Assembly: GCA_041675145.1 (NCBI GenBank)
Contig: JBAYUK010000002.1
Location: forward strand, 280,530 to 344,529
Source of the DNA: Patescibacteria group bacterium
GTDB taxonomy: Bacteria; Patescibacteriota; JACPGU01
Length of the DNA: 64,000 nucleotides
Direction: 5' to 3'
Part shown: one piece after another, positions 29,946 to 63,361 of the stretch
How positions within the stretch are numbered: position 1 is the stretch's first letter
Layout: every line of letters begins with the position of its first letter
Translations under genes and position numbers: made by a program
Notes under the pieces: model-generated
Told to the model about the DNA's origin: nothing
Databases searched by the model: none
The model's input: the letters and a program-made list of their open reading frames with translations, nothing else

Positions 29946-30611
29946 TCAGTTGAGAGGTTTGGTGTCGTGGCAGTTGCCACAATACGGCTTGCCCTCTGAA
30001 CTGTGATGGCGAATCTTGAGTTTAGTTTTGCAACCAGTGCATGGTGCGCGTTTTGCTTCATTTCCGTCGTAGCAAGGGCGGCATAGGTCTGCTTTTGTTC
30101 CTGGTCCTTTTTGTGATCTATACATTAGAAACGCAGACTCCTTACAGGAGACACATATGCCGTTGAAAAACTCCTTTTTGTTGACGAGGCATTTTGTGCA
30201 TACCTTCTTCTTCCCTGAATTCGTTTCAACTGTTCTTACCTGTGATATCGTGGAAAAATTTTTACACGAGATACACTGTACCAGGTTGGCTTTAGCGTAG
30301 CAGGTGAAGCAGGTCTTAAGCCTCCGCCCTTCTTTACTGATGCTGTAGCTGCCGACTGGGTTGTTGTTGCAAGCCTGGCAGAGTTGAGAGTAAGAGTGTG
30401 GTTCAGAAGGGAAGTGTTCCAGGCAGTAGAATCGCTTGTTTTTTGCCGAGTAAGAGATTGTTTCGCCGGTAGCAAAGCATCGGGAGCATCGCTTCTCCAC
30501 TTGAAGTAGCGCCATAGGTGGGAACACCTTGCGGCGAGGGTGGACTGGTTCCAAGATGACCACAGTTGGGTCGGTTGGTGGTGGTTCTGATATCCCTGTT
30601 AAAGTGCTCAC
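29946..30611 (-). CDS. Cysteine-rich protein with about ten CxxC pairs (multiple zinc-ribbon repeats), hypothetical.
   Basis: GTG start preceded by AAGGAG with 8-nt spacing. CxxC motifs recur regularly through the protein. Confidence 0.5.
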   Translation of the reverse strand: MSTLTGISEPPPTDPTVVILEPVHPRRKVFPPMALLQVEKRCSRCFATGETISYSAKNKRFYCLEHFPSEPHSYSQLCQACNNNPVGSYSISKEGRRLKTCFTCYAKANLVQCISCKNFSTISQVRTVETNSGKKKVCTKCLVNKKEFFNGICVSCKESAFLMYRSQKGPGTKADLCRPCYDGNEAKRAPCTGCKTKLKIRHHSSEGKPYCGNCHDTKPLN

Positions 30612-30787
30612 TGTTCACGCTCCTTGTGTATTTTTTGGAAAGTTTATTGTAAACCAAAATAATACTTTATTCAATAGTAAATAACTTCTATATAAGCATA
30701 AGTGAGCTGTTTGCTGATATAGGATGTTTGAATAGATGTAAAGTAATTACCTACTTACTAATAACATTTCCACTGGGTAGTTTATTT

Positions 30788-30796
30788 GGTATAATA
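30788..30796 (+). promoter_or_regulatory. Extended -10 promoter (TGGTATAAT) of the Type I R-M operon.
   Basis: It lies in an AT-rich 210-nt intergenic region, 28 nt upstream of the hsdM ATG. Confidence 0.5.
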
Positions 30797-30823
30797 AGCG
30801 TTATAACATCTCATGGATAGTAA

Positions 30824-32374
30824 ATGTTAAAGGTAAAAAAAGAGCAAAAATCTGAACCACTTGAGAAACAGCTTTTTAAAGCGGCGGATAAGCTTCGTAA
30901 GAATATTGATGCAGCAGAGTACAAGAATATTGTGCTTGGTTTGATTTTTTTGAAATATATCTCTGATTCGTTTGAAGAGAAATACAGACAGCTGACACTA
31001 GAAAAAGAACAGGGAACTGGAGCCGATCCAGAAAGTATCGACGAATATCGAGCTGAGAATGTGTTCTTTGTACCAACCGAGGCACGTTGGCAGTATCTCC
31101 ATGGTCGCTCAAAGCTCCCATCTATTGGTGAAGATCTTGATAAGGCCATGGAATCAATCGAGAAAATCAACCCAACGCTCAAAGGTATCTTGCCAAAGGT
31201 ATTTGCTCGCCCAAATCTGGACAAAGCAGCGCTTGGCGGACTGATTGACCTCGTGAGCGATATCGCGCTCGGTGACGAGGAAGCCAAATCAAAAGATATT
31301 CTTGGTCGAGTCTATGAATATTTTCTTGGTGAGTTTGCCAATGCCGAAGGAAAAAAGGGAGGGCAGTTTTATACCCCAAAATCGATCGTGAAGCTGATGG
31401 TTGAAATGATTGAACCATACAAGGGCCGCATCTATGACCCGTGTTGTGGTAGTGGCGGCATGTTTATTATGTCGGAAAAATTTGTGCAGTCTCATGCAGG
31501 CCGTATTGATGACCTTGCTATCTATGGGCAGGAGAGTAATCAAACGACCTATCGTCTCGCTCGAATGAACCTAGCGATTCGCGGCATTGATGGATCGGGT
31601 GTGAAATGGAACACCGAAGGATCGTTTCTCAAGGACGAGCACAAAGATCTCAAAGCAGATTTTATTCTCGCCAACCCACCGTTTAACGTTTCCGATTGGA
31701 GCGGGGAGTTGCTACAAACTGATCCACGTTGGCAATATGGCAAACCACCAGCAGGCAATGCGAACTTTGCTTGGTTACAACATATGGTCTATCATCTCTC
31801 GCCAAATGGTATTATGGCCTGCGTGTTGGCCAATGGTTCTCTTTCATCACAATCGAGCGGGGAAGGAGAAATCAGAAAGGCACTTGTCGACGCTGATCTA
31901 GTAGATTGTATCGTCGTGCTGCCAAAGCAACTTTTTTATAACACAGGTATCCCGGCGTGTATCTGGTTTCTGTCTCGCAAACGAATTGGTAACGGTGACC
32001 GTAAGCGTACAGGTGAGATACTATTTATCGACGCGTCCGACACTGGCTATATGGCAGACCGCACTCATCGTGAGTTCACCGACGAAGATGTCACCATGAT
32101 TGCCGACACCTATCATGAATGGCGCAAAGTTGGCGGTAAATACGAAGACCAAAAGGGTTTCTCAAAATCCGCAACACTCGCTGATATCAAAAAACACAAC
32201 TATGTCCTCATCCCTGGTAGCTATGTCGGCATCAAAGCCGCCGAGGACGACGGAATATCGTTTGAAGAAAAGATGAAAAAGTTGACAGGAGAGCTGAAGG
32301 AACAGATAAAAGAGGAAGAGAGGTTAAATGAGGAGATTAAGAAGCAGCTGAATAAAATTGGAATTAAATTATAG
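30824..32374 (+). CDS. hsdM: Type I restriction-modification system methyltransferase subunit HsdM (N6-adenine).
   Basis: HsdM N-terminal domain, SAM motif ([10 protein letters not shown]), catalytic NPPF (ANPPFN), and a C-terminal coiled coil. Confidence 0.9.
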
Positions 32375-32376
32375 AT

Positions 32377-33009
32377 ATGGGTTTAATCTTTACACCTCCT
32401 AAGTACCAAGCTAGTTCGTTTAATTGTCCTCACTGTAGGGCGTTTTCTCAGATGATTTGGAGTAACACCCATTATAATAGTGGAAGGTATACGGTTGATA
32501 ACCTTGAAATCTCTCACTGCTTTCACTGTAAAGACTTTTCTTTATGGCTAAATGCGAAAATGATTTACCCAGCAAAAATACTTGTAGATTCCCCAAACTC
32601 TGATTTGCCAGAAGATATAAAGAAAGACTACCTAGAAGCAGCTAGTATTTTAAGTGAGTCATCGCGTGGTTCATCTGCGTTGCTCCGTATTGCTATTGAG
32701 AAGCTGGTAAATTATCTTGGGGCATTAGGAAGTAATCTTAATGCTAAGATTGGGTTCTTGGTTTCTGATAGAAATCTTAATCCAAAGATTCAAAAATCTT
32801 TAGATGTAGTGCGGGTGATTGGAAATAATGCGGTTCATCCCGGATTGATTGATTTAACTGACGATCGCTCTACGGCAGAATTGCTTTTTAAGTTAGTAAA
32901 TATTATAGCAAAAGAAATGATAACTGAACCAAATGAAGTTGACTCAATATATAGTGAACTAGTACCAGAAAAAAATAAAATTGCGATCAAGAAGCGAGAC
33001 ACAAAATAA
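32377..33009 (+). CDS. DUF4145-like protein with an N-terminal CxxC...CxxC zinc ribbon, embedded in the R-M operon.
   Basis: Conserved block KIQKSLDVVRVIGNNAVHPG, an R..GN..H signature as in DUF4145. It starts 3 nt after the hsdM stop. Confidence 0.5.
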   Translation: MGLIFTPPKYQASSFNCPHCRAFSQMIWSNTHYNSGRYTVDNLEISHCFHCKDFSLWLNAKMIYPAKILVDSPNSDLPEDIKKDYLEAASILSESSRGSSALLRIAIEKLVNYLGALGSNLNAKIGFLVSDRNLNPKIQKSLDVVRVIGNNAVHPGLIDLTDDRSTAELLFKLVNIIAKEMITEPNEVDSIYSELVPEKNKIAIKKRDTK

Positions 33010-33013
33010 CTAT

Positions 33014-33586
33014 ATGAATAGAAAAGAAGTTATAAATAAGATTGAAGAATTCCGTCAAACTTGTAAAGAATACAGCAAGCTTCTTTTGGATTCTCGCGAT
33101 AGTGTTGTGCCTGAGATCGTTCGTAATCATGATTCAATTGATGAGGCAAAGGCAGATTTGAGCAGATCCTTTGCTTTTTTGGAAGAATATATTATTAAGT
33201 TTGGTAATAACCCTAGAATGAGTGACGGTGTTTGGAATGTCACATACTCTCCTTATAGTAACGCATTTAGCACTGATACACTTGTTCGTGTTGCCCCATC
33301 ATTAGACAGAGTTGTTGACGATCTTAATATTGTCTTGGGTAGAATCGAAGCTACTACTGACAGTGAATTCGCAGAGAAGATGAACCCTTTACCACAAAAT
33401 AGCAGTGGAGAGAGCGACAGTAAGGAAGTAACAATCAATGATATAGAAAAACCTCATAAAGAGTACTGGAATATGGTCTTCGCATCACTTATGGGCTGGG
33501 CGAGGTCACATGTTTCTACGGTGATCGCAGGTGTTATAATTACACTAATTGCTGGCTTCTTACTTTTTAAACTTGGCTGGAACTAA
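33014..33586 (+). CDS. Hypothetical protein with a C-terminal transmembrane anchor, embedded in the R-M operon.
   Basis: The start is chosen at ATG 33014, 5 nt after the upstream stop. The body is acidic and helical, and the C-terminus has a TM helix (VSTVIAGVIITLIAGFLLF). Confidence 0.45.
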   Translation: MNRKEVINKIEEFRQTCKEYSKLLLDSRDSVVPEIVRNHDSIDEAKADLSRSFAFLEEYIIKFGNNPRMSDGVWNVTYSPYSNAFSTDTLVRVAPSLDRVVDDLNIVLGRIEATTDSEFAEKMNPLPQNSSGESDSKEVTINDIEKPHKEYWNMVFASLMGWARSHVSTVIAGVIITLIAGFLLFKLGWN

Positions 33587-33587
33587 A

Positions 33588-34733
33588 ATGACGTTCACAT
33601 CTTCGAAAAATTGGAAGACAGTAGACTTGTCAGAATTGGCAGCTTTTTCGAATGGGAAAAGTTCCCCAGATAGGCTTGAGAGCGGACAGTATCCAGTTTA
33701 CGGAGCTAATGGAATTATTGGTTTTACTGATATAAAGAATTCTGATAAAGAATCAATTATTATCGGTAGAGTCGGATCGTATTGTGGAAGTCTATATTTC
33801 TCAGAAAATGAGTCATGGGTTACTGATAATGCTATTATCTGTAAAGCAAAAGATAATTCTGATCCAAAATTTATTTTTTATTTACTAAATACATTAGGCT
33901 TAAACTCTCGTGCAGCAGGATCTGGTCAACCACTAATAAACCAGTCAATTTTAGGGTCTATAGAAGTCATTATCCCACAAAAGAAGGAGGAGCAAAAAGA
34001 AGTTGCGGCGGTGTTAGGGTGTTTGGATGACAAGATTGAGCTGTTGCGGCGAGAGAATAAAACGCTCGCAAGCATCGCGCAAGCGATATTTAAAGAATGG
34101 TTTGTAGATTTCCGATTTCCTGGGCACGAAAAGGTAAAGATGATTGATGGACTGCCTGAGGAGTGGAAGGTTGGTAAGTTAGGGGAGTTTTGCAATATCT
34201 CAATTGGACGAACTCCACCACGAAAAGAAGAAGAATGGTTTTCGAAATATCCAAGTGATGTAAAATGGATTTCTATTAAAGACATGGGAACAAGCGGGGC
34301 TTATATTTTTAATACTTCAGAATATTTAACCCAAGAAGCAGTGGATAATTTTAATATTCCTGTGATTCCAGAAAATACTGTGATTATTAGTTTCAAGATG
34401 ACGCTTGGACGTGTTGCAATTACAACCGAAGAAATGCTTTCAAATGAAGCGATTGCACACCTAAAACCAAAAGATAATCTTTCGCCAGAATTTCTGTATC
34501 TAACCATGAAGAATTTTGATTTTAATTCTATGGGTAGTACTTCATCTATTGCAAGTGCTGTAAATTCACAATCGATCAAGGATATGGAAATTGTAGCTGG
34601 AGGTGATCATATAATGAAATTATTTAGCCAAATTACTAGCCCTATTTTTGAGAGATTAAAAAACGGAGCAAAAGAAATCCAAACCCTGTCCAGGTTGAGG
34701 GATGATTTGTTGAATAAGATTTTTAATGTATGA
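33588..34733 (+). CDS. hsdS: Type I R-M specificity subunit HsdS (two target-recognition domains).
   Basis: Start is at ATG 33588, 1 nt after the upstream stop. A central conserved coiled-coil region (EVAAVLGCLDDKIELLRRENKTLASIAQAIFKEWF) and a matching C-terminal repeat are present. Confidence 0.85.
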   Translation: MTFTSSKNWKTVDLSELAAFSNGKSSPDRLESGQYPVYGANGIIGFTDIKNSDKESIIIGRVGSYCGSLYFSENESWVTDNAIICKAKDNSDPKFIFYLLNTLGLNSRAAGSGQPLINQSILGSIEVIIPQKKEEQKEVAAVLGCLDDKIELLRRENKTLASIAQAIFKEWFVDFRFPGHEKVKMIDGLPEEWKVGKLGEFCNISIGRTPPRKEEEWFSKYPSDVKWISIKDMGTSGAYIFNTSEYLTQEAVDNFNIPVIPENTVIISFKMTLGRVAITTEEMLSNEAIAHLKPKDNLSPEFLYLTMKNFDFNSMGSTSSIASAVNSQSIKDMEIVAGGDHIMKLFSQITSPIFERLKNGAKEIQTLSRLRDDLLNKIFNV

Positions 34734-36232
34734 GAAATATTCTGGACTTTACGAATGTGGAGGCAAGAAGCTTTCTTCTCAAGGGAGATAGTTATGTTAA
34801 CTTTGATCTCCCAAAGTATTTTACATTCGATGATTTAATCAAAAAAATATCAAATAAGATTGATAATAAAGAGTTATCAGATTTTTATGCAACTACTAAG
34901 CCTAATCATCCAAAGACTTTTGATGAAGTTAATTATGTTTTGCTAAATAATAAAGATGGTAGGTATGCATGGAGGCCATTTGAAATAATCCATCCGACAA
35001 TATATGTCTACTTAGTTCATCGGATTACAGAGATAAATAATTGGCAAACTATATTGAATAGATTTAGATGCTTCAAAGAACATACGGTAATATCTTGCAT
35101 GAGTCTACCTATTGAATCAGAAAATAGCGACAGTGATAAGGCTAGCCAAGTTATTAATTGGTGGAATGAAGTCGAACAGCGGTCTCTTGAATGTGCCCTG
35201 GAATATGAGTATGTATATCATACTGATATTAGCGACTGCTATCCTTCGATATATACTCATTCGGTTGTCTGGGCTTTACATACAAAAGAAGTAGCTAAAA
35301 GAGAAATAAGAAACAATAGTTTATTAGGGAATATTATTGATGGATGTCTTCAATCAATGTCTTACGGTCAAACAAATGGGATACCTCAGGGTAGCGTTCT
35401 GATGGATCTTTTGGCGGAACTTGTACTTGGGTATGTAGATGAACTAGTAACAGAAAGAATGAGTCAGATTGATGTTTGTGAATATAAGATAATTAGGTAT
35501 AGAGATGATTATCGTGTCTTTGTGAATAGTCCAGAAATAGCGGAAAGAATATTAAAAATACTTACAGAGGTTCTTATTGGCCTGGGTCTAAAGTTAAATA
35601 GTAGTAAAACGGTATTATCGGTAAATGCCATAGAGTCATCCATCAAACCAGATAAGTCACATTGGATTCAGTATGGTAGTGAATTAGGGTCATTATTGGT
35701 TTTTGTCAAGCGATTACATAGCTTTTCAGGTCAATTTCCTAATTCTGGCACATTAGTTAAAATGCTCCAAAGGTTTTATAAAAAGATCGAGAACTTAGAT
35801 TCTTTAGATGACTATATTAATCCTGTAGTTATGATTAGCTATTTAGCCGATATTGCCTATAGGAATCCCAGAACTTATCCAATAGCAATAGCAGTTATTA
35901 GTAAGTTGATTCTATTTATTAAGCAAGAAGATCGCCAGGCTCTTATTGATAAAATAAGGAAGAAATTTTCTAGAATTCCCAATACAGGCCACTTAGACTT
36001 ATGGCTTCAAAGAATGACTATTAAGATTTATCCAGGTATACTATATCCAGAAAAGTTATGTAGAAGAGTCTTTGATTCAAATATTAAGATTTGGAATAGT
36101 GATTGGCTTTGTAAAGATATGCAAGATTTAATACAATCTACACCTTTAGTTGATTTCGGAGTAATCAACTCTTTTGGAGACTTTATTTCTTCACAAGAGG
36201 TAGCATTATTTAGGCAGCTACAGGACTCGTAA
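34730..36232 (+). CDS. Stand-alone reverse transcriptase (Abi/UG-like defence RT candidate), translationally coupled to hsdS.
   Basis: ATGA start/stop overlap with hsdS. RT motif 1 is RPFEIIHPTIYVY. Motif A is YHTDISDCYPSI. Motif B' is NGIPQGSVLMDLLAELVL. Motif C is IRYRDDYRVF, with YRDD at nt 35498-35509. Motif D/E is GLGLKLNSSKTVL. A ~200-aa alpha-helical C-terminal region follows. No endonuclease or maturase domain is present. Confidence 0.8.
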   Translation: MRNILDFTNVEARSFLLKGDSYVNFDLPKYFTFDDLIKKISNKIDNKELSDFYATTKPNHPKTFDEVNYVLLNNKDGRYAWRPFEIIHPTIYVYLVHRITEINNWQTILNRFRCFKEHTVISCMSLPIESENSDSDKASQVINWWNEVEQRSLECALEYEYVYHTDISDCYPSIYTHSVVWALHTKEVAKREIRNNSLLGNIIDGCLQSMSYGQTNGIPQGSVLMDLLAELVLGYVDELVTERMSQIDVCEYKIIRYRDDYRVFVNSPEIAERILKILTEVLIGLGLKLNSSKTVLSVNAIESSIKPDKSHWIQYGSELGSLLVFVKRLHSFSGQFPNSGTLVKMLQRFYKKIENLDSLDDYINPVVMISYLADIAYRNPRTYPIAIAVISKLILFIKQEDRQALIDKIRKKFSRIPNTGHLDLWLQRMTIKIYPGILYPEKLCRRVFDSNIKIWNSDWLCKDMQDLIQSTPLVDFGVINSFGDFISSQEVALFRQLQDS

Positions 36233-36235
36233 TTT

Positions 36236-39415: not shown

Positions 39416-39688
39416 ATGCTAGAGCAAAAAGAAATGTATGTCGATCAGTACCTAAGGGAGAACGGCAGGCTGCTTGAGGAGCGGCCCGCCACTGGTCAGG
39501 CGTTTGAGCTTAATGGAGCTTATTATTGGACCTGCTATTTGCTGACGGTAAAGATACCGCAAGGTGAGCATAAGAAGAGAATATTTCTTCATATTGGTGC
39601 ATTCTTGCCATTTGATTGGCGCCCAGTTGATGAGTACGATGTTCCTGGCTTGATAGATTTCTTAAACATGTATTACCGTAAGAGCTAG
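39416..39688 (+). CDS. Hypothetical 90-aa protein (possible antitoxin partner of the downstream zeta-like kinase).
   Basis: Its own TTGTTATAAT promoter is at 39398-39407. No recognisable motifs. Confidence 0.35.
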   Translation: MLEQKEMYVDQYLRENGRLLEERPATGQAFELNGAYYWTCYLLTVKIPQGEHKKRIFLHIGAFLPFDWRPVDEYDVPGLIDFLNMYYRKS

Positions 39689-39690
39689 CT

Positions 39691-39750
39691 ATGCCAAAAT
39701 ACTACAACTCACAACGGAAAAAAAAGAGCTGTATCAGCCTGCAGAGATAA
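39691..39750 (+). pseudogene. Degenerate duplicate of the 5' end of the Cas4-like nuclease gene (19-codon remnant MPKYYNSQRKKKSCISLQR*).
   Basis: 39691-39745 aligns with 40709-40762: ATG(C/T)CAAAATACTACA...CACAACG...CTGTAT. The reading frame is disrupted at an A8 run. Confidence 0.5.
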
Positions 39751-39768
39751 CTTCTCGACAGGCTCGAA

Positions 39769-40485
39769 GTGACCCATAACTCAACCATGACAGACGAACA
39801 AATACAAAAAAATGCGGACCAATATTTAAAAGATCACAAGGCAGATATCCTAGAGATGTTTGCGAGTCCAGAACACTATTTTCCGACTGAAACACCGGTT
39901 ACTATCTTTATGGCTGGTTCTCCTGGAGCAGGTAAGACTGAAGTCGCTAGCGCTTTGTTTGATGAGTTGAGGAGCATGAAGAGTCCTCCTGTTAGAATAG
40001 ATGCAGATATGATTAGGTCTATGCTGCCCGGGTATGTAGGCGGGAACGCTCATGTATTCCAAAAAACAGCTAGTACGGGAGTGCATATATTGTTTGACTA
40101 TGCGTTAAAGCATAACCTGAACGTTATCCTCGATGGTACTTTTTCACATAGTAGTGCATCGCAAAACATCGAAAGGTCTTTGAAGCGAGGTAGGACGGTT
40201 ATTATTTATTTTGTATACCAGGATCCTCTTATTGCCTGGCGTTTTACACAGGCGCGCGAAGCTATCGAAGGGAGACGGGTAACAAAGGAGACGTTTATCA
40301 ATGCATTTTTAAAGTCGCGGGATAATGTTCGACTAGTTAAGGAACAATTTGGCTCAGAGATTAGGCTCGACGTTATACTAAAAGACTTCACGCACGACAT
40401 CGGACAGGTATTTACTGATGTAGCTGAAATTGACCAGTTCCTCCCAAAGGCATATACTAAAGAAGAACTAGAGACTCTTATATGA
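39769..40485 (+). CDS. Zeta-toxin-like P-loop kinase (AAA/zeta_toxin family).
   Basis: Walker A MAGSPGAGKT, then RIDADMIRS, which corresponds to the zeta IDGD catalytic Asp region, then NVILDGTF. Confidence 0.55.
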   Translation: MTHNSTMTDEQIQKNADQYLKDHKADILEMFASPEHYFPTETPVTIFMAGSPGAGKTEVASALFDELRSMKSPPVRIDADMIRSMLPGYVGGNAHVFQKTASTGVHILFDYALKHNLNVILDGTFSHSSASQNIERSLKRGRTVIIYFVYQDPLIAWRFTQAREAIEGRRVTKETFINAFLKSRDNVRLVKEQFGSEIRLDVILKDFTHDIGQVFTDVAEIDQFLPKAYTKEELETLI

Positions 40486-40682
40486 TGAAAATACAAGCAA
40501 TAAAACATATAGTACAAAAGGCTAAGAAAGATACAAAGCAGGAGTTCTCTGACTTCTTTCGTAATGCACCAAAAGAAGAGCAAATAGCGCTCCTTAAACG
40601 AGTAGCTCAGAAAGCAAATAAAGAACAAAAAGCAGTAGTAGATAAATATAAAAAAACATTAGCTAGAAAAATCGCTCGTTAA
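40482..40682 (+). CDS. Small Lys-rich basic protein (66 aa), hypothetical, overlapping the zeta-like gene by ATGA.
   Basis: 4-nt overlap with the upstream gene. A terminator hairpin overlaps its stop codon. Confidence 0.4.
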   Translation: MMKIQAIKHIVQKAKKDTKQEFSDFFRNAPKEEQIALLKRVAQKANKEQKAVVDKYKKTLARKIAR

Positions 40683-40696
40683 GAGCGGTTTTTTGG
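40669..40696 (+). terminator. Small intrinsic terminator (CGCTC-GTTAA-GAGCG followed by TTTTTT) after the zeta-like cassette.
   Basis: A 5-bp GC-rich stem plus T6. It overlaps the next gene's TGGTATAAT promoter (40694-40702). Confidence 0.4.
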
Positions 40697-40708
40697 TATA
40701 ATACATTC

Positions 40709-41509
40709 ATGTCAAAATACTACACAGCACAACGAGATAAAGGACTGTATGAACCAGGGGGTACCAAGCCCTTTAAGTTGTCGCGCTCAAAGATTGACCT
40801 TTTTATTTCATGTCCTCGGTGCTTCTATTTAGATCGCAGGCTCGGAGTTGGGCGCCCTCCAGGGTTTCCGTTTGCCTTGAACTCCGCTGTGGATACTCTT
40901 TTAAAACAGGAGTTTGATACCCACCGCGTGGCAGGTACTCGCCACCCTCTCATAGAACAGTACGGCGTTAATGCTCGGCCTGTTGCTCATGAGAACCTCG
41001 AACAATGGAGACATAACTTCACGGGAGTGCAGTACTTGCACGAGAAAACAAACTTCCAAGTATTTGGAGCAATCGACGACCTTTGGATAAATGAGGCAGG
41101 GGAATATATTGTGGTGGACTACAAGGCTACCGCGAAAGAAGAGGCCATCACTACTCTCGACAAAGACTGGCATGATGGATACAAGCGTCAGATGGAGATA
41201 TACCAGTGGTTATTGCGCCACAACGGGCATAAGGTATCAGATACGGGGTATTTCGTATACTGTAATGGTCGAGCAGATCGTGCTGCCTTTGATAAAAAGC
41301 TCGAATTTGATGTCACCCTTATCCCGTACAAGGGATCAGATGAGTGGGTAGAGGGTAAAATCAATGAGGCGTATGGGTGTCTCAACTCAGATGAGGTGCC
41401 AGTTTCATACCCTGAGTGTGACTACTGCTCATATATTAAGGCTGTGGAGTCTCACGAAGGTGCAAAAGGAGCTTCAGCTAGTAAGAAAGCACAGGGGAAG
41501 CTCTTCTAG
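40709..41509 (+). CDS. PD-(D/E)xK nuclease, Cas4/RecB-like family, with four Cys (possible Fe-S cluster). Stand-alone, with no CRISPR nearby.
   Basis: Motifs IDDLWINEAGEYIVVDYKAT (D...E.K with the DYK signature), N-terminal CPRC and C-terminal CDYC. Confidence 0.5.
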   Translation: MSKYYTAQRDKGLYEPGGTKPFKLSRSKIDLFISCPRCFYLDRRLGVGRPPGFPFALNSAVDTLLKQEFDTHRVAGTRHPLIEQYGVNARPVAHENLEQWRHNFTGVQYLHEKTNFQVFGAIDDLWINEAGEYIVVDYKATAKEEAITTLDKDWHDGYKRQMEIYQWLLRHNGHKVSDTGYFVYCNGRADRAAFDKKLEFDVTLIPYKGSDEWVEGKINEAYGCLNSDEVPVSYPECDYCSYIKAVESHEGAKGASASKKAQGKLF

Positions 41510-62839: not shown

Positions 62840-63055
62840 AAAGTAATACTCGGGTTGGCTATATATCAAATTCAATAAAATAAATATGGATCATTTGCGT
62901 GGTTGGATTTGCTCGTGAAAACACAAAGCTCTTCACGAGTGCGGCTCTTGCGAACCCGTTAACCTTTCGGCTAACGACCAACCACGGAACACTCAGTGAA
63001 GAGTTCTCTATCGTGGTTGGTTTTTTGCCATGAATAGCCATTTAGTGGCTAATTT
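62840..63055. promoter_or_regulatory. Highly structured non-coding region with a five-fold repeated GGTTGG/CCAACC ((C)GTGGTTGG) motif and several hairpins. Candidate integrase arm-type sites and/or a small RNA ending in a T6 terminator.
   Basis: CGTGGTTGG at 62898-62906. Its complement CCAACCACG at 62978-62986. CGTGGTTGG plus TTTTTT at 63012-63026. CCAACC...GGTTGG hairpin at 62842-62868. 8-bp hairpin CTCGTGAA/TTCACGAG at 62912-62939. The whole gap 62765-63361 is about 600 nt non-coding. Confidence 0.4.
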
Positions 63056-63361
63056 TAGGCGATAATCAATTGTGCGCATATTATATACTATTGCTATTTT
63101 TTTCACAAATAATCTCTGGTGCGGGAGAATCGTTTGACTATATGTGGTCAGGGTGATATTTTTTGGGGTGTAAGGAGTCCCTACCTCCTTTTAGTCAACA
63201 TGACACCTTCAACCCCGCCCCCTTCGGAGGTGGTGCGGTACGGGGCTGATGAATTATATAACTAGCAAAACAAAATAGATCAGATATTAGCAATTAATAT
63301 CGGTCAGCTTTTGTTTTGCTTTTTTATTTGCAACTACATGGCAGATCGTAGGGTTATTAAC

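Follow-up and report, generated by a model that had tools for sequence, protein, structure and literature searches.

Most genes embedded in restriction-modification (RM) systems of Type I are defense genes, and many of them are still unnamed (Payne et al., 10.1101/2024.01.29.577857). Here we describe two open reading frames (ORFs), ORF1 and ORF2, at positions 32377-33586 of a 64,000-nucleotide (nt) stretch of Patescibacteria DNA, referred to as the window. Both lie on the + strand between hsdM and hsdS of a Type I RM operon, where a first-pass annotation of the sequence had placed them. The gene order is hsdM-ORF1-ORF2-hsdS-RT-hsdR, in which RT encodes a reverse transcriptase; the six genes share one strand and are tightly packed, with 2, 4, 1, -4, and 3 nt between successive genes. 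We read this locus, with moderate confidence, as a Type I RM operon that carries three independently acquired, autonomous embedded defense modules: ORF1 as the RNase RAZR, ORF2 as an abortive infection (Abi) candidate, and the RT as a stand-alone AbiP2. The RM enzyme would be the first barrier to infection, and RAZR, ORF2, and AbiP2 would be nested backups.

The closest described relative of ORF1 is PD-T7-4, which was discovered by functional selection in Escherichia coli (PMC9519451) and was renamed RAZR, for ring-activated zinc-finger RNase, in a 2026 Nature paper (PMC13017515). RAZR works alone in E. coli, with its N-terminal Cys4 zinc finger as sensor and a DUF4145 domain, a divergent HEPN domain, as effector. 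The zinc finger senses ring-forming phage proteins, either the putative recombinase Gp77 or the portal, 24 protomers assemble round the phage ring, and the DUF4145 domain cleaves single-stranded RNA non-specifically (PMC13017515). R146 and H154 are essential, as alanine substitution abolishes defense, and the combination of non-specific single-stranded RNA cleavage with an abortive infection phenotype is known only for the RAZR proteins of E. coli and Klebsiella (PMC13017515). The association of DUF4145 with RM operons, which the first-pass annotation had mentioned, is documented in the literature (PMC3710099, Table 1).

For ORF2, the closest described systems are modular Abi proteins. One Abi architecture, described by Anantharaman et al. 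(2013, PMC3710099), puts swappable N-terminal domains before HEPN, TIR, or restriction endonuclease (REase) effectors. In AbiJ-type proteins the N-terminal domains are AbiJ-NTD1-5, DpnII/MboI-NTD, or HEPN/RES-NTD1, and the effectors are HEPN, TIR, REase, or HKD domains (PMC3710099). PrrC, encoded in the Type Ic EcoprrI operon, is an Abi effector that provides a second line of defense; it combines an ABC-ATPase with a HEPN RNase, is encoded between hsdS and hsdR, is silenced by the RM enzyme, and is activated by T4 Stp (PMC3710099).

ORF1 and the reverse transcriptase

ORF1 matches the PADLOC PD-T7-4 model (PDLC04109) with an E value of 7.5e-76, and residues 5-209 cover model positions 4-208 of 211. 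Residues 6-208 align with the RAZR chain of cryo-electron microscopy entry 9y9c, of which there are 24 copies in the entry, at 41% identity (E = 1e-46). PHROG 1305 matches at 1.1e-31, and Pfam DUF4145 matches at E = 8.6e-13 (48.6 bits versus a cut-off of 23.1). The R..GN..H signature from which the first-pass annotation had assigned ORF1 to DUF4145 is RVIGNNAVH at residues 146-154, within VVRVIGNNAVHPG, and R146 (codon 32812-32814) and H154 (codon 32836-32838) have the same numbers as in RAZR. The N-terminal CxxC...CxxC ribbon was also read correctly, with CxxC pairs at residues 17-20 and 48-51, and all four of its cysteines line up with cysteines of the 9y9c chain. ORF1 and the RAZR protein of E. 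coli UMB1727 (9y9c) are similar in length (210 versus 219 amino acids [aa]) and share the Cys4 ribbon, a conserved linker, and the DUF4145/HEPN domain. ORF1 is clearly a full-length RAZR ortholog as judged from its sequence, which has the Cys4 ribbon, the DUF4145/HEPN domain, and the catalytic R146 and H154 of RAZR. The defense role proposed for it earlier is consistent with this homology, and half of the finding is therefore already known.

By homology to RAZR, the ribbon of ORF1 would be the trigger-sensing, specificity-setting domain and would recognize ring-shaped phage proteins, portal or recombinase. The protein would assemble as a 24-mer round the phage ring, and its DUF4145/HEPN domain, through R146 and H154, would then cut RNA non-specifically, so that translation stops and the infection is aborted. 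No partner would be needed. Two observations weigh against a simple transfer of this mechanism. The residues that bridge adjacent RAZR dimers, D179, D180, and R184, are K, E, and E in ORF1 (residues 179-184, window positions 32911-32928), and the zinc-finger residues that contact the trigger differ between the two proteins. Ring assembly and the identity of the trigger therefore cannot be assumed for ORF1. The K/E/E combination may form a charge-swapped salt bridge or may belong to a different interface. Differences in the zinc finger are expected, because it is the variable, specificity-setting part of RAZR.

ORF1 also differs from described homologs in setting and host. It is embedded between hsdM and hsdS, while PD-T7-4 homologs have been reported beside an integrase (PMC9519451), and its host is an uncultured bacterium rather than E. 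coli. ORF1 itself adds little to what is known of RAZR beyond extending it to an uncultured lineage and showing that nesting inside a Type I RM operon is possible.

The RT matches the PADLOC AbiP2 model (PDLC03744) over its full length (E = 2.9e-191; residues 1-497 cover model positions 4-486 of 489), together with PHROG 12132 (3.7e-99) and Pfam RVT_1. Its start codon overlaps the hsdS stop codon by 4 nt (ATGA). AbiP2 is described as a stand-alone, multi-domain Abi reverse transcriptase (PMC9226505), and the RT in this operon would be expected to act in the same way.

The ORF2 family and its contexts

ORF2 is a genuine gene, and the family to which it belongs has no name. Its longest reading frame begins at TTG 32981, a start that was rejected in favor of ATG 33014, because all homologs align from the Met at 33014 and a separate gene call, made on another assembly of this DNA, likewise gives a protein of 190 aa. 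A chance ORF was rejected on the grounds of conservation and fold; ORF1 and ORF2 are both conserved proteins. As the first-pass annotation had described it, the ORF2 product is acidic (pI 5.04, 28 D+E versus 21 K+R), is predicted to be helical, and has a tail-anchored topology. Its sole hydrophobic segment is at residues 167-185 of 190 (Kyte-Doolittle score of 2.54), five residues before the C terminus, which reads KLGWN, and the N-terminal 125 residues are hydrophilic (GRAVY of -0.46). This segment is predicted from hydropathy and an AlphaFold helix to be the only transmembrane (TM) helix; it lies within ∼30 residues of the C terminus, and the protein has no signal peptide.

The N-terminal domain of ORF2 (N-domain) was modeled confidently by AlphaFold2 from a 58-sequence alignment (pLDDT 95.9, pTM 0.88) as three long helices, two short helices, and tiny beta bridges. 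The full-length model, built from 8 sequences, was mediocre (pLDDT 69.7), with residues 129-145 below 50, and its Foldseek matches were generic helical bundles and syntaxins that we judged to be meaningless. ORF2 has no match in Pfam, PADLOC (5027 v2 models), NCBIfam, or PHROGs. No PDB or BFVD structure matched the N-domain fold in Foldseek at E < 0.5, with TM scores mostly below 0.5, and the N-domain profile returned only coiled-coil noise from PDB sequences. When 58 N-domains were scanned with Pfam at a lenient E ≤ 5, the matches were again no more than noise.

Relatives of ORF2 are rare. A word-indexed search of 5.8 billion proteins with ORF2 found only seven relatives, none of them named, and a word-index search with the family profile found only 19 proteins, none with an informative name. 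When 1.84 billion representatives were searched exhaustively with a profile, 118 clusters were found at E ≤ 1e-3, 28 of them below 1e-30. The family comes almost entirely from metagenomes and metagenome-assembled genomes (MAGs), including those of Saccharibacteria and other uncultured lineages, and it is too rare in RefSeq-type genomes to be listed in PADLOC.

Among 8 close homologs, 36 positions of the N-domain are invariant, including the motifs SRD, IVRNHD, and GNNPxMxDGVWNVxYSPYxNAF. Past the N-domain, these homologs have a variable acidic linker, followed by a Trp-rich segment and a TM helix ending in GWN. Across the family, the only N-domain positions that are at least 90% conserved are F13, L23, S27, N38, L49, Y81, A84, and L104.

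The N-domain begins at residues 1-13 in nearly all family members, while the part that follows it is exchanged. A strict C-terminal TM tail is found in 48 of 121 members, and a further 14 carry a TM segment that has an extension; 22 of the 48 TM-tailed representatives end in GW plus 0-3 residues (GWN, GWK, GWNQ). In longer members, the N-domain is followed by a Ymh-HEPN domain (7 proteins), a CAP12/Pycsar-type TIR domain (6), a TIR_2 domain (3), a DpnII/MboI-type REase domain (2), or a CBS domain (1). Very close relatives of ORF2 are among the fused forms, as in P0005 (Ymh-HEPN, 1e-61) and P0011 (TIR, 3e-47). The DpnII/MboI-type REase domain of P0045 is also present in enterobacterial plasmid proteins, which do not have the ORF2 N-domain.

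Two further close N-domain relatives, P0017 (370 aa) and P0026 (371 aa), have in common a C-terminal region of ∼245 residues without a Pfam match. This region contains HARFYIVD or HGRFIIVD, which recalls the HxK(x)4D motif of PLD/HKD nucleases with Arg replacing Lys, and it may be a further type of effector.

Small proteins that combine a cytoplasmic sensing domain with one or two TM helices, such as Pycsar PycTM, CBASS Cap15-type effectors, and type III CRISPR Cam1, kill by membrane disruption, and TM and TIR effectors alternate in Pycsar/CBASS-type families. The ORF2 family shows the same alternation, as its partners include the CAP12/Pycsar-type TIR domain. Unlike those systems, ORF2 lacks a cyclic-nucleotide-binding, SAVED, or CARF domain and carries its TM helix at the extreme C terminus, and no cyclase gene was found by Pfam or PADLOC among the operon or downstream genes.

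The likeness to AbiJ-type proteins is one of architecture. The ORF2 family follows the same logic (PMC3710099): a mostly alpha-helical N-domain of ∼100-140 residues precedes interchangeable toxic domains (Ymh-HEPN, TIR, and REase), and the genes are often in or near RM operons. The family differs in its commonest partner, a single C-terminal TM helix, which does not appear in the list of partners given for those domains (PMC3710099). Among the named N-terminal domain classes, the Pfam scan of the 58 N-domains covered AbiJ_NTD3/4/5 and DUF3644, none of which was matched. Like PrrC, ORF2 is encoded inside a Type I hsd operon; unlike PrrC, it is membrane anchored and encoded upstream of hsdS. Pfam, PADLOC, and NCBIfam revealed no ATPase domain in ORF1 or ORF2 and no HEPN domain in ORF2. 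By these comparisons, the mode of action of ORF2 would resemble that of a modular Abi protein of the AbiJ type or of a small TM effector, with no detectable membership in a named family.

Genomic contexts were compared among a few dozen metagenomic contigs, which were collected by searching with ORF2 itself and scanned with a 20-sequence alignment. All close TM-tailed relatives with enough flanking sequence are encoded in Type I RM operons, where their genes lie 1-5 nt upstream of hsdS. This arrangement is found at eight independent loci (the window, L001, the L002-L006 element, L008, L009, L010, L011, and L019), one of which, L011, is a gammaproteobacterial MAG. Where hsdM and hsdS enclose a second embedded gene (the window, L001, L009, and L010), the ORF2-like gene is always the one proximal to hsdS. 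The tail of the protein tracks the RM subtype, with LFKLGWN accompanying a 516-aa HsdM and IISG...HKLGWNQ a 598-aa HsdM.

The companion genes differ in every ORF2-containing RM locus. In related loci, the space between hsdM and the ORF2-like gene holds RhuM/PDC-S05, a PDC-S13 protein, a 198-aa unknown protein, or nothing, and the space between hsdS and hsdR holds PDC-S32, AriA-like ABC ATPases, or a 438-aa coiled-coil protein. Neither RAZR nor AbiP2 occurs in any of the seven other RM loci that contain an ORF2-like gene, in which HsdM is 48-83% identical to that of the window. Conservation in related RM loci, which the first-pass annotation had expected of both genes alongside the DUF4145 match, thus holds for ORF2 and fails for ORF1. 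ORF2 resembles the PADLOC PDC candidates named through "guilt by embedding": it is on the same strand as the hsd genes, nested in a Type I RM operon beside RAZR and AbiP2, and recurs between hsd genes in 7 further independent operons, in some of them beside PDC-S05, PDC-S13, or PDC-S32; no PADLOC v2 model matches ORF2 itself.

A protein of ∼440 aa is encoded between hsdS and hsdR at L002 (6177-7493) and L011 (5290-6630). It has weak coiled-coil-type Pfam matches and no PADLOC match and is another unnamed embedded candidate.

Two groups of TM-tailed relatives are found in other settings. A second clade, at ∼40-50% identity and with the same TM tail, includes a Saccharibacteria MAG and has no hsd genes nearby. 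Its genes come after those for a serine recombinase and an XRE regulator and for an HNH endonuclease that carries two homing-endonuclease-associated repeats. The HNH gene is conserved directly upstream of the ORF2-like gene, with a gap of 8-10 nt (L012 533-1231, L023 1207-1905, and L026 6323-6991), and the pair may constitute a two-gene module carried by a small mobile element. A distant clade in Caenarcaniphilales (L015-L018, ∼25% identity) has conserved synteny beside mazG/ribD. Here the ORF2-like gene (L015 7001-7537) lies between two unknown genes and mazG/ribD, near secY and ribosomal protein genes.

Candidate roles of ORF2

We infer the activities of ORF1, ORF2, and the RT in this organism, and the entire ORF2 mechanism, from the homologies, architecture, gene contexts, and domain swaps observed here. 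Because of its architecture and context, we regard the N-domain of ORF2 as a candidate sensor or regulator and its tail-anchored helix as a candidate effector. The cytoplasmic helical domain of ∼125 residues would sense or regulate, as the domain swaps within the family suggest, and the flexible acidic linker would join it to the Trp-rich interfacial helix and the single C-terminal TM helix. Upon activation, the TM part is predicted to oligomerize and damage the inner membrane, and the tail would thereby take the role that TIR, HEPN, or REase domains have in paralogs with the same N-domain. The constant place of ORF2 before hsdS suggests that it is coexpressed with the RM enzyme, to which it may also be coupled in function to provide a second line of defense. 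ORF2 is thus a plausible new single-protein Abi-type candidate that combines a sensor domain with a membrane effector, and the family architecture fits the earlier comparison with Abi membrane effectors.

Several observations weigh against this reading. The single TM helix might serve only to anchor the protein and not as an effector, and the strict adjacency of ORF2 to hsdS suits an accessory role in RM equally well. No catalytic-looking polar residue is universally conserved in the N-domain, so that a sensor role is argued from architecture alone. No ORF2 relatives were found in plasmid records or viral contigs, and the synteny in Caenarcaniphilales, the chief misfit with a defense role, looks like that of housekeeping rather than defense genes.

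If the RM-accessory role were correct, ORF2 would be a subunit of the Type I RM enzyme, acting either as an inner-membrane tether that holds HsdM and HsdS, and perhaps HsdR, where phage DNA enters or as a regulator of restriction. The position 1-5 nt upstream of hsdS in 8 of 8 close TM-tailed relatives, the hsdS-proximal placement, the parallel between tail and RM subtypes, and the apparently non-enzymatic N-domain all agree with such a role. We nevertheless consider it unlikely, since fusion of the same N-domain to TIR, HEPN, and REase domains makes no sense for an RM tether and the clade at 40-50% identity keeps the TM tail in surroundings that lack hsd genes. Such a gene is also missing from the vast majority of Type I RM systems, and the hsdM-hsdS junction is a general hotspot of embedded genes (10.1101/2024.01.29.577857). 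A role in housekeeping or membrane structure, with ORF2 having no part in conflict and being carried by chance in mobile RM cassettes, would account for the synteny with mazG, ribD, secY, and ribosomal protein genes in the distant Caenarcaniphilales relatives. It is very unlikely for ORF2 given that close relatives are confined to RM operons and recombinase/HNH islands, that their distribution is patchy, with just 8 clusters at E ≤ 1e-3 from the word search of 5.8 billion proteins, that the N-domain is fused to toxin-type domains, and that the GC content of ORF2 is atypical.

The first-pass annotation had joined ORF1 as sensor, ORF2 as membrane effector, and the RT into one multi-gene system. 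The three genes are packed closely on one strand in a single apparent operon, which speaks for such a system, but the self-sufficiency of RAZR and the co-occurrence data contradict it, and we consider it extremely unlikely. Homologs of RAZR or AbiP2 do not occur in any of the other seven RM loci with an ORF2-like gene, and all four plasmid-borne ORF1 relatives examined (in Spartinivicinus, Francisella, Planococcus, and Campylobacter) stand alone, without RM genes or an ORF2-like neighbor. RAZR alone defends E. coli with its own sensor and effector (PMC13017515), and AbiP2 is likewise described as acting alone. ORF2 as a partner or antitoxin of RAZR was also rejected, as the two do not co-occur.

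Two further readings tie the activation of ORF2 to the RM enzyme. As a PrrC-like guard, a specific sub-case of the favored reading, ORF2 would be kept silent by the RM complex and freed by a phage anti-restriction protein, and the membrane would then depolarize. The PrrC precedent and the constant, apparently cotranscribed position of ORF2 beside hsdS speak for this sub-case; ORF2 has no homology to PrrC and neither its ABC ATPase nor its HEPN domain, relatives of ORF2 exist outside RM operons, and we regard the guard as quite unlikely. More broadly, ORF2 could represent a new anti-phage family in which the N-domain watches the RM complex or a phage anti-restriction factor, a depolarizing tail-anchored helix responds once restriction is disabled, and the same sensor is reused with TIR, HEPN, or REase domains. 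We consider this reading unlikely. If true, it would make ORF2 a membrane-acting counterpart of the PrrC guard with a new swappable sensor domain.

Another embedded Abi candidate would by itself not surprise a specialist. The main value of the locus is in ORF2, whose compact, confidently folded family (∼120 clusters at 50% identity) appears undescribed and is tied to four kinds of killer module. Should the N-domain be a sensor, this 190-aa protein with one TM helix would be a tractable system for asking what a non-enzymatic defense sensor recognizes and whether RM-embedded genes guard the RM enzyme. ORF2 also shows that many embedded defense candidates escape RefSeq-based catalogs, because the family is nearly confined to metagenomic lineages.

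Operon organization and flanking features

The features of the operon are listed in Table 1. The GC contents of ORF1, ORF2, hsdS, and RT are 0.33-0.38 (GC3 of 0.27-0.33), compared to 0.45-0.46 for hsdM and hsdR and a window average of 0.427. Because of this difference, we regard the operon as a mosaic, and it suggests that the variable middle, consisting of the embedded genes and hsdS, was gained separately from the conserved hsdM/hsdR frame. The three embedded modules are presumably cotranscribed with the RM genes. The promoter-like site upstream of hsdM is a candidate only, as the count of such sites in the operon region was not above shuffle expectation. The terminator scan found no convincing internal terminator in the operon, with counts not above chance.

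Table 1. Coordinates of genes, protein domains, and a candidate promoter in the Type I RM operon (window positions)
Feature	Position	Strand	Basis or detail
Candidate sigma-70-like promoter, TTTCCA-17-TATAAT with TG	30767..30795	+	∼30 nt upstream of hsdM; best match in scan
hsdM, Type I RM methyltransferase subunit, 516 aa	30824..32374	+	Pfam N6_Mtase 2.3e-110, HsdM_N 7.4e-27; PADLOC MTase_I 1.1e-206
ORF1, RAZR / PD-T7-4 ortholog, 210 aa	32377..33009	+	PADLOC, PDB 9y9c, Pfam DUF4145, PHROG 1305
ORF1 Cys4 zinc ribbon (C17, C20, C48, C51)	32425..32529	+	CPHC at 17, CFHC at 48
ORF1 DUF4145/HEPN domain, residues 87-169	32635..32883	+	Pfam stretch
ORF2, tail-anchored protein of unnamed family, 190 aa	33014..33586	+	Homologs; independent gene call
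ORF2 N-terminal helical domain, residues 1-125	33014..33388	+	AlphaFold2 model; conserved loop GNNPRMSDGVWNVTYSPYSNAF
ORF2 acidic low-complexity linker, ∼residues 126-146	33389..33451	+	Length and sequence vary among homologs
ORF2 Trp-rich juxtamembrane helix and TM helix, residues 147-186	33452..33571	+	Model helix 147-186; core 167-185 at 33512-33568
hsdS, specificity subunit, 381 aa from ATG at 33588	33588..34733	+	Pfam Methylase_S 2.4e-35; PADLOC Specificity_I 1.1e-92; gene call
AbiP2-type Abi reverse transcriptase, 500 aa, between hsdS and hsdR	34730..36232	+	PADLOC, Pfam RVT_1, PHROG 12132
hsdR, restriction subunit, 1043 aa	36236..39367	+	Pfam HSDR_N, SWI2_SNF2, T1R_D3-like, T1RH-like_C; PADLOC REase_I E = 0

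No Shine-Dalgarno sequence is recognizable within the 25 nt ahead of the start codon of any of the six operon genes (30798-36235), which suggests that the host lineage makes little use of such sequences.

Four genes directly follow hsdR on the + strand (39416-41509). The first is a 90-aa ORF without matches, and it is accompanied by a zeta-toxin family kinase gene (Pfam 6e-38), which a 66-aa ORF overlaps by 4 nt, and by a fourth gene for a PD-(D/E)XK/Cas4-like nuclease (Pfam 1.3e-13). These genes may be a toxin-antitoxin pair and a further defense gene that extend the island. On the opposite strand, ∼200 nt upstream of hsdM, a Cys-rich ORF of 221 aa with many CxxC pairs occupies 29946-30611 (-). 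Elsewhere in the window, a LOOT RNA (Rfam RF03000) was detected at 62943-63061 (-) over the full length of the model, with 74 bits versus a gathering score of 46.4.

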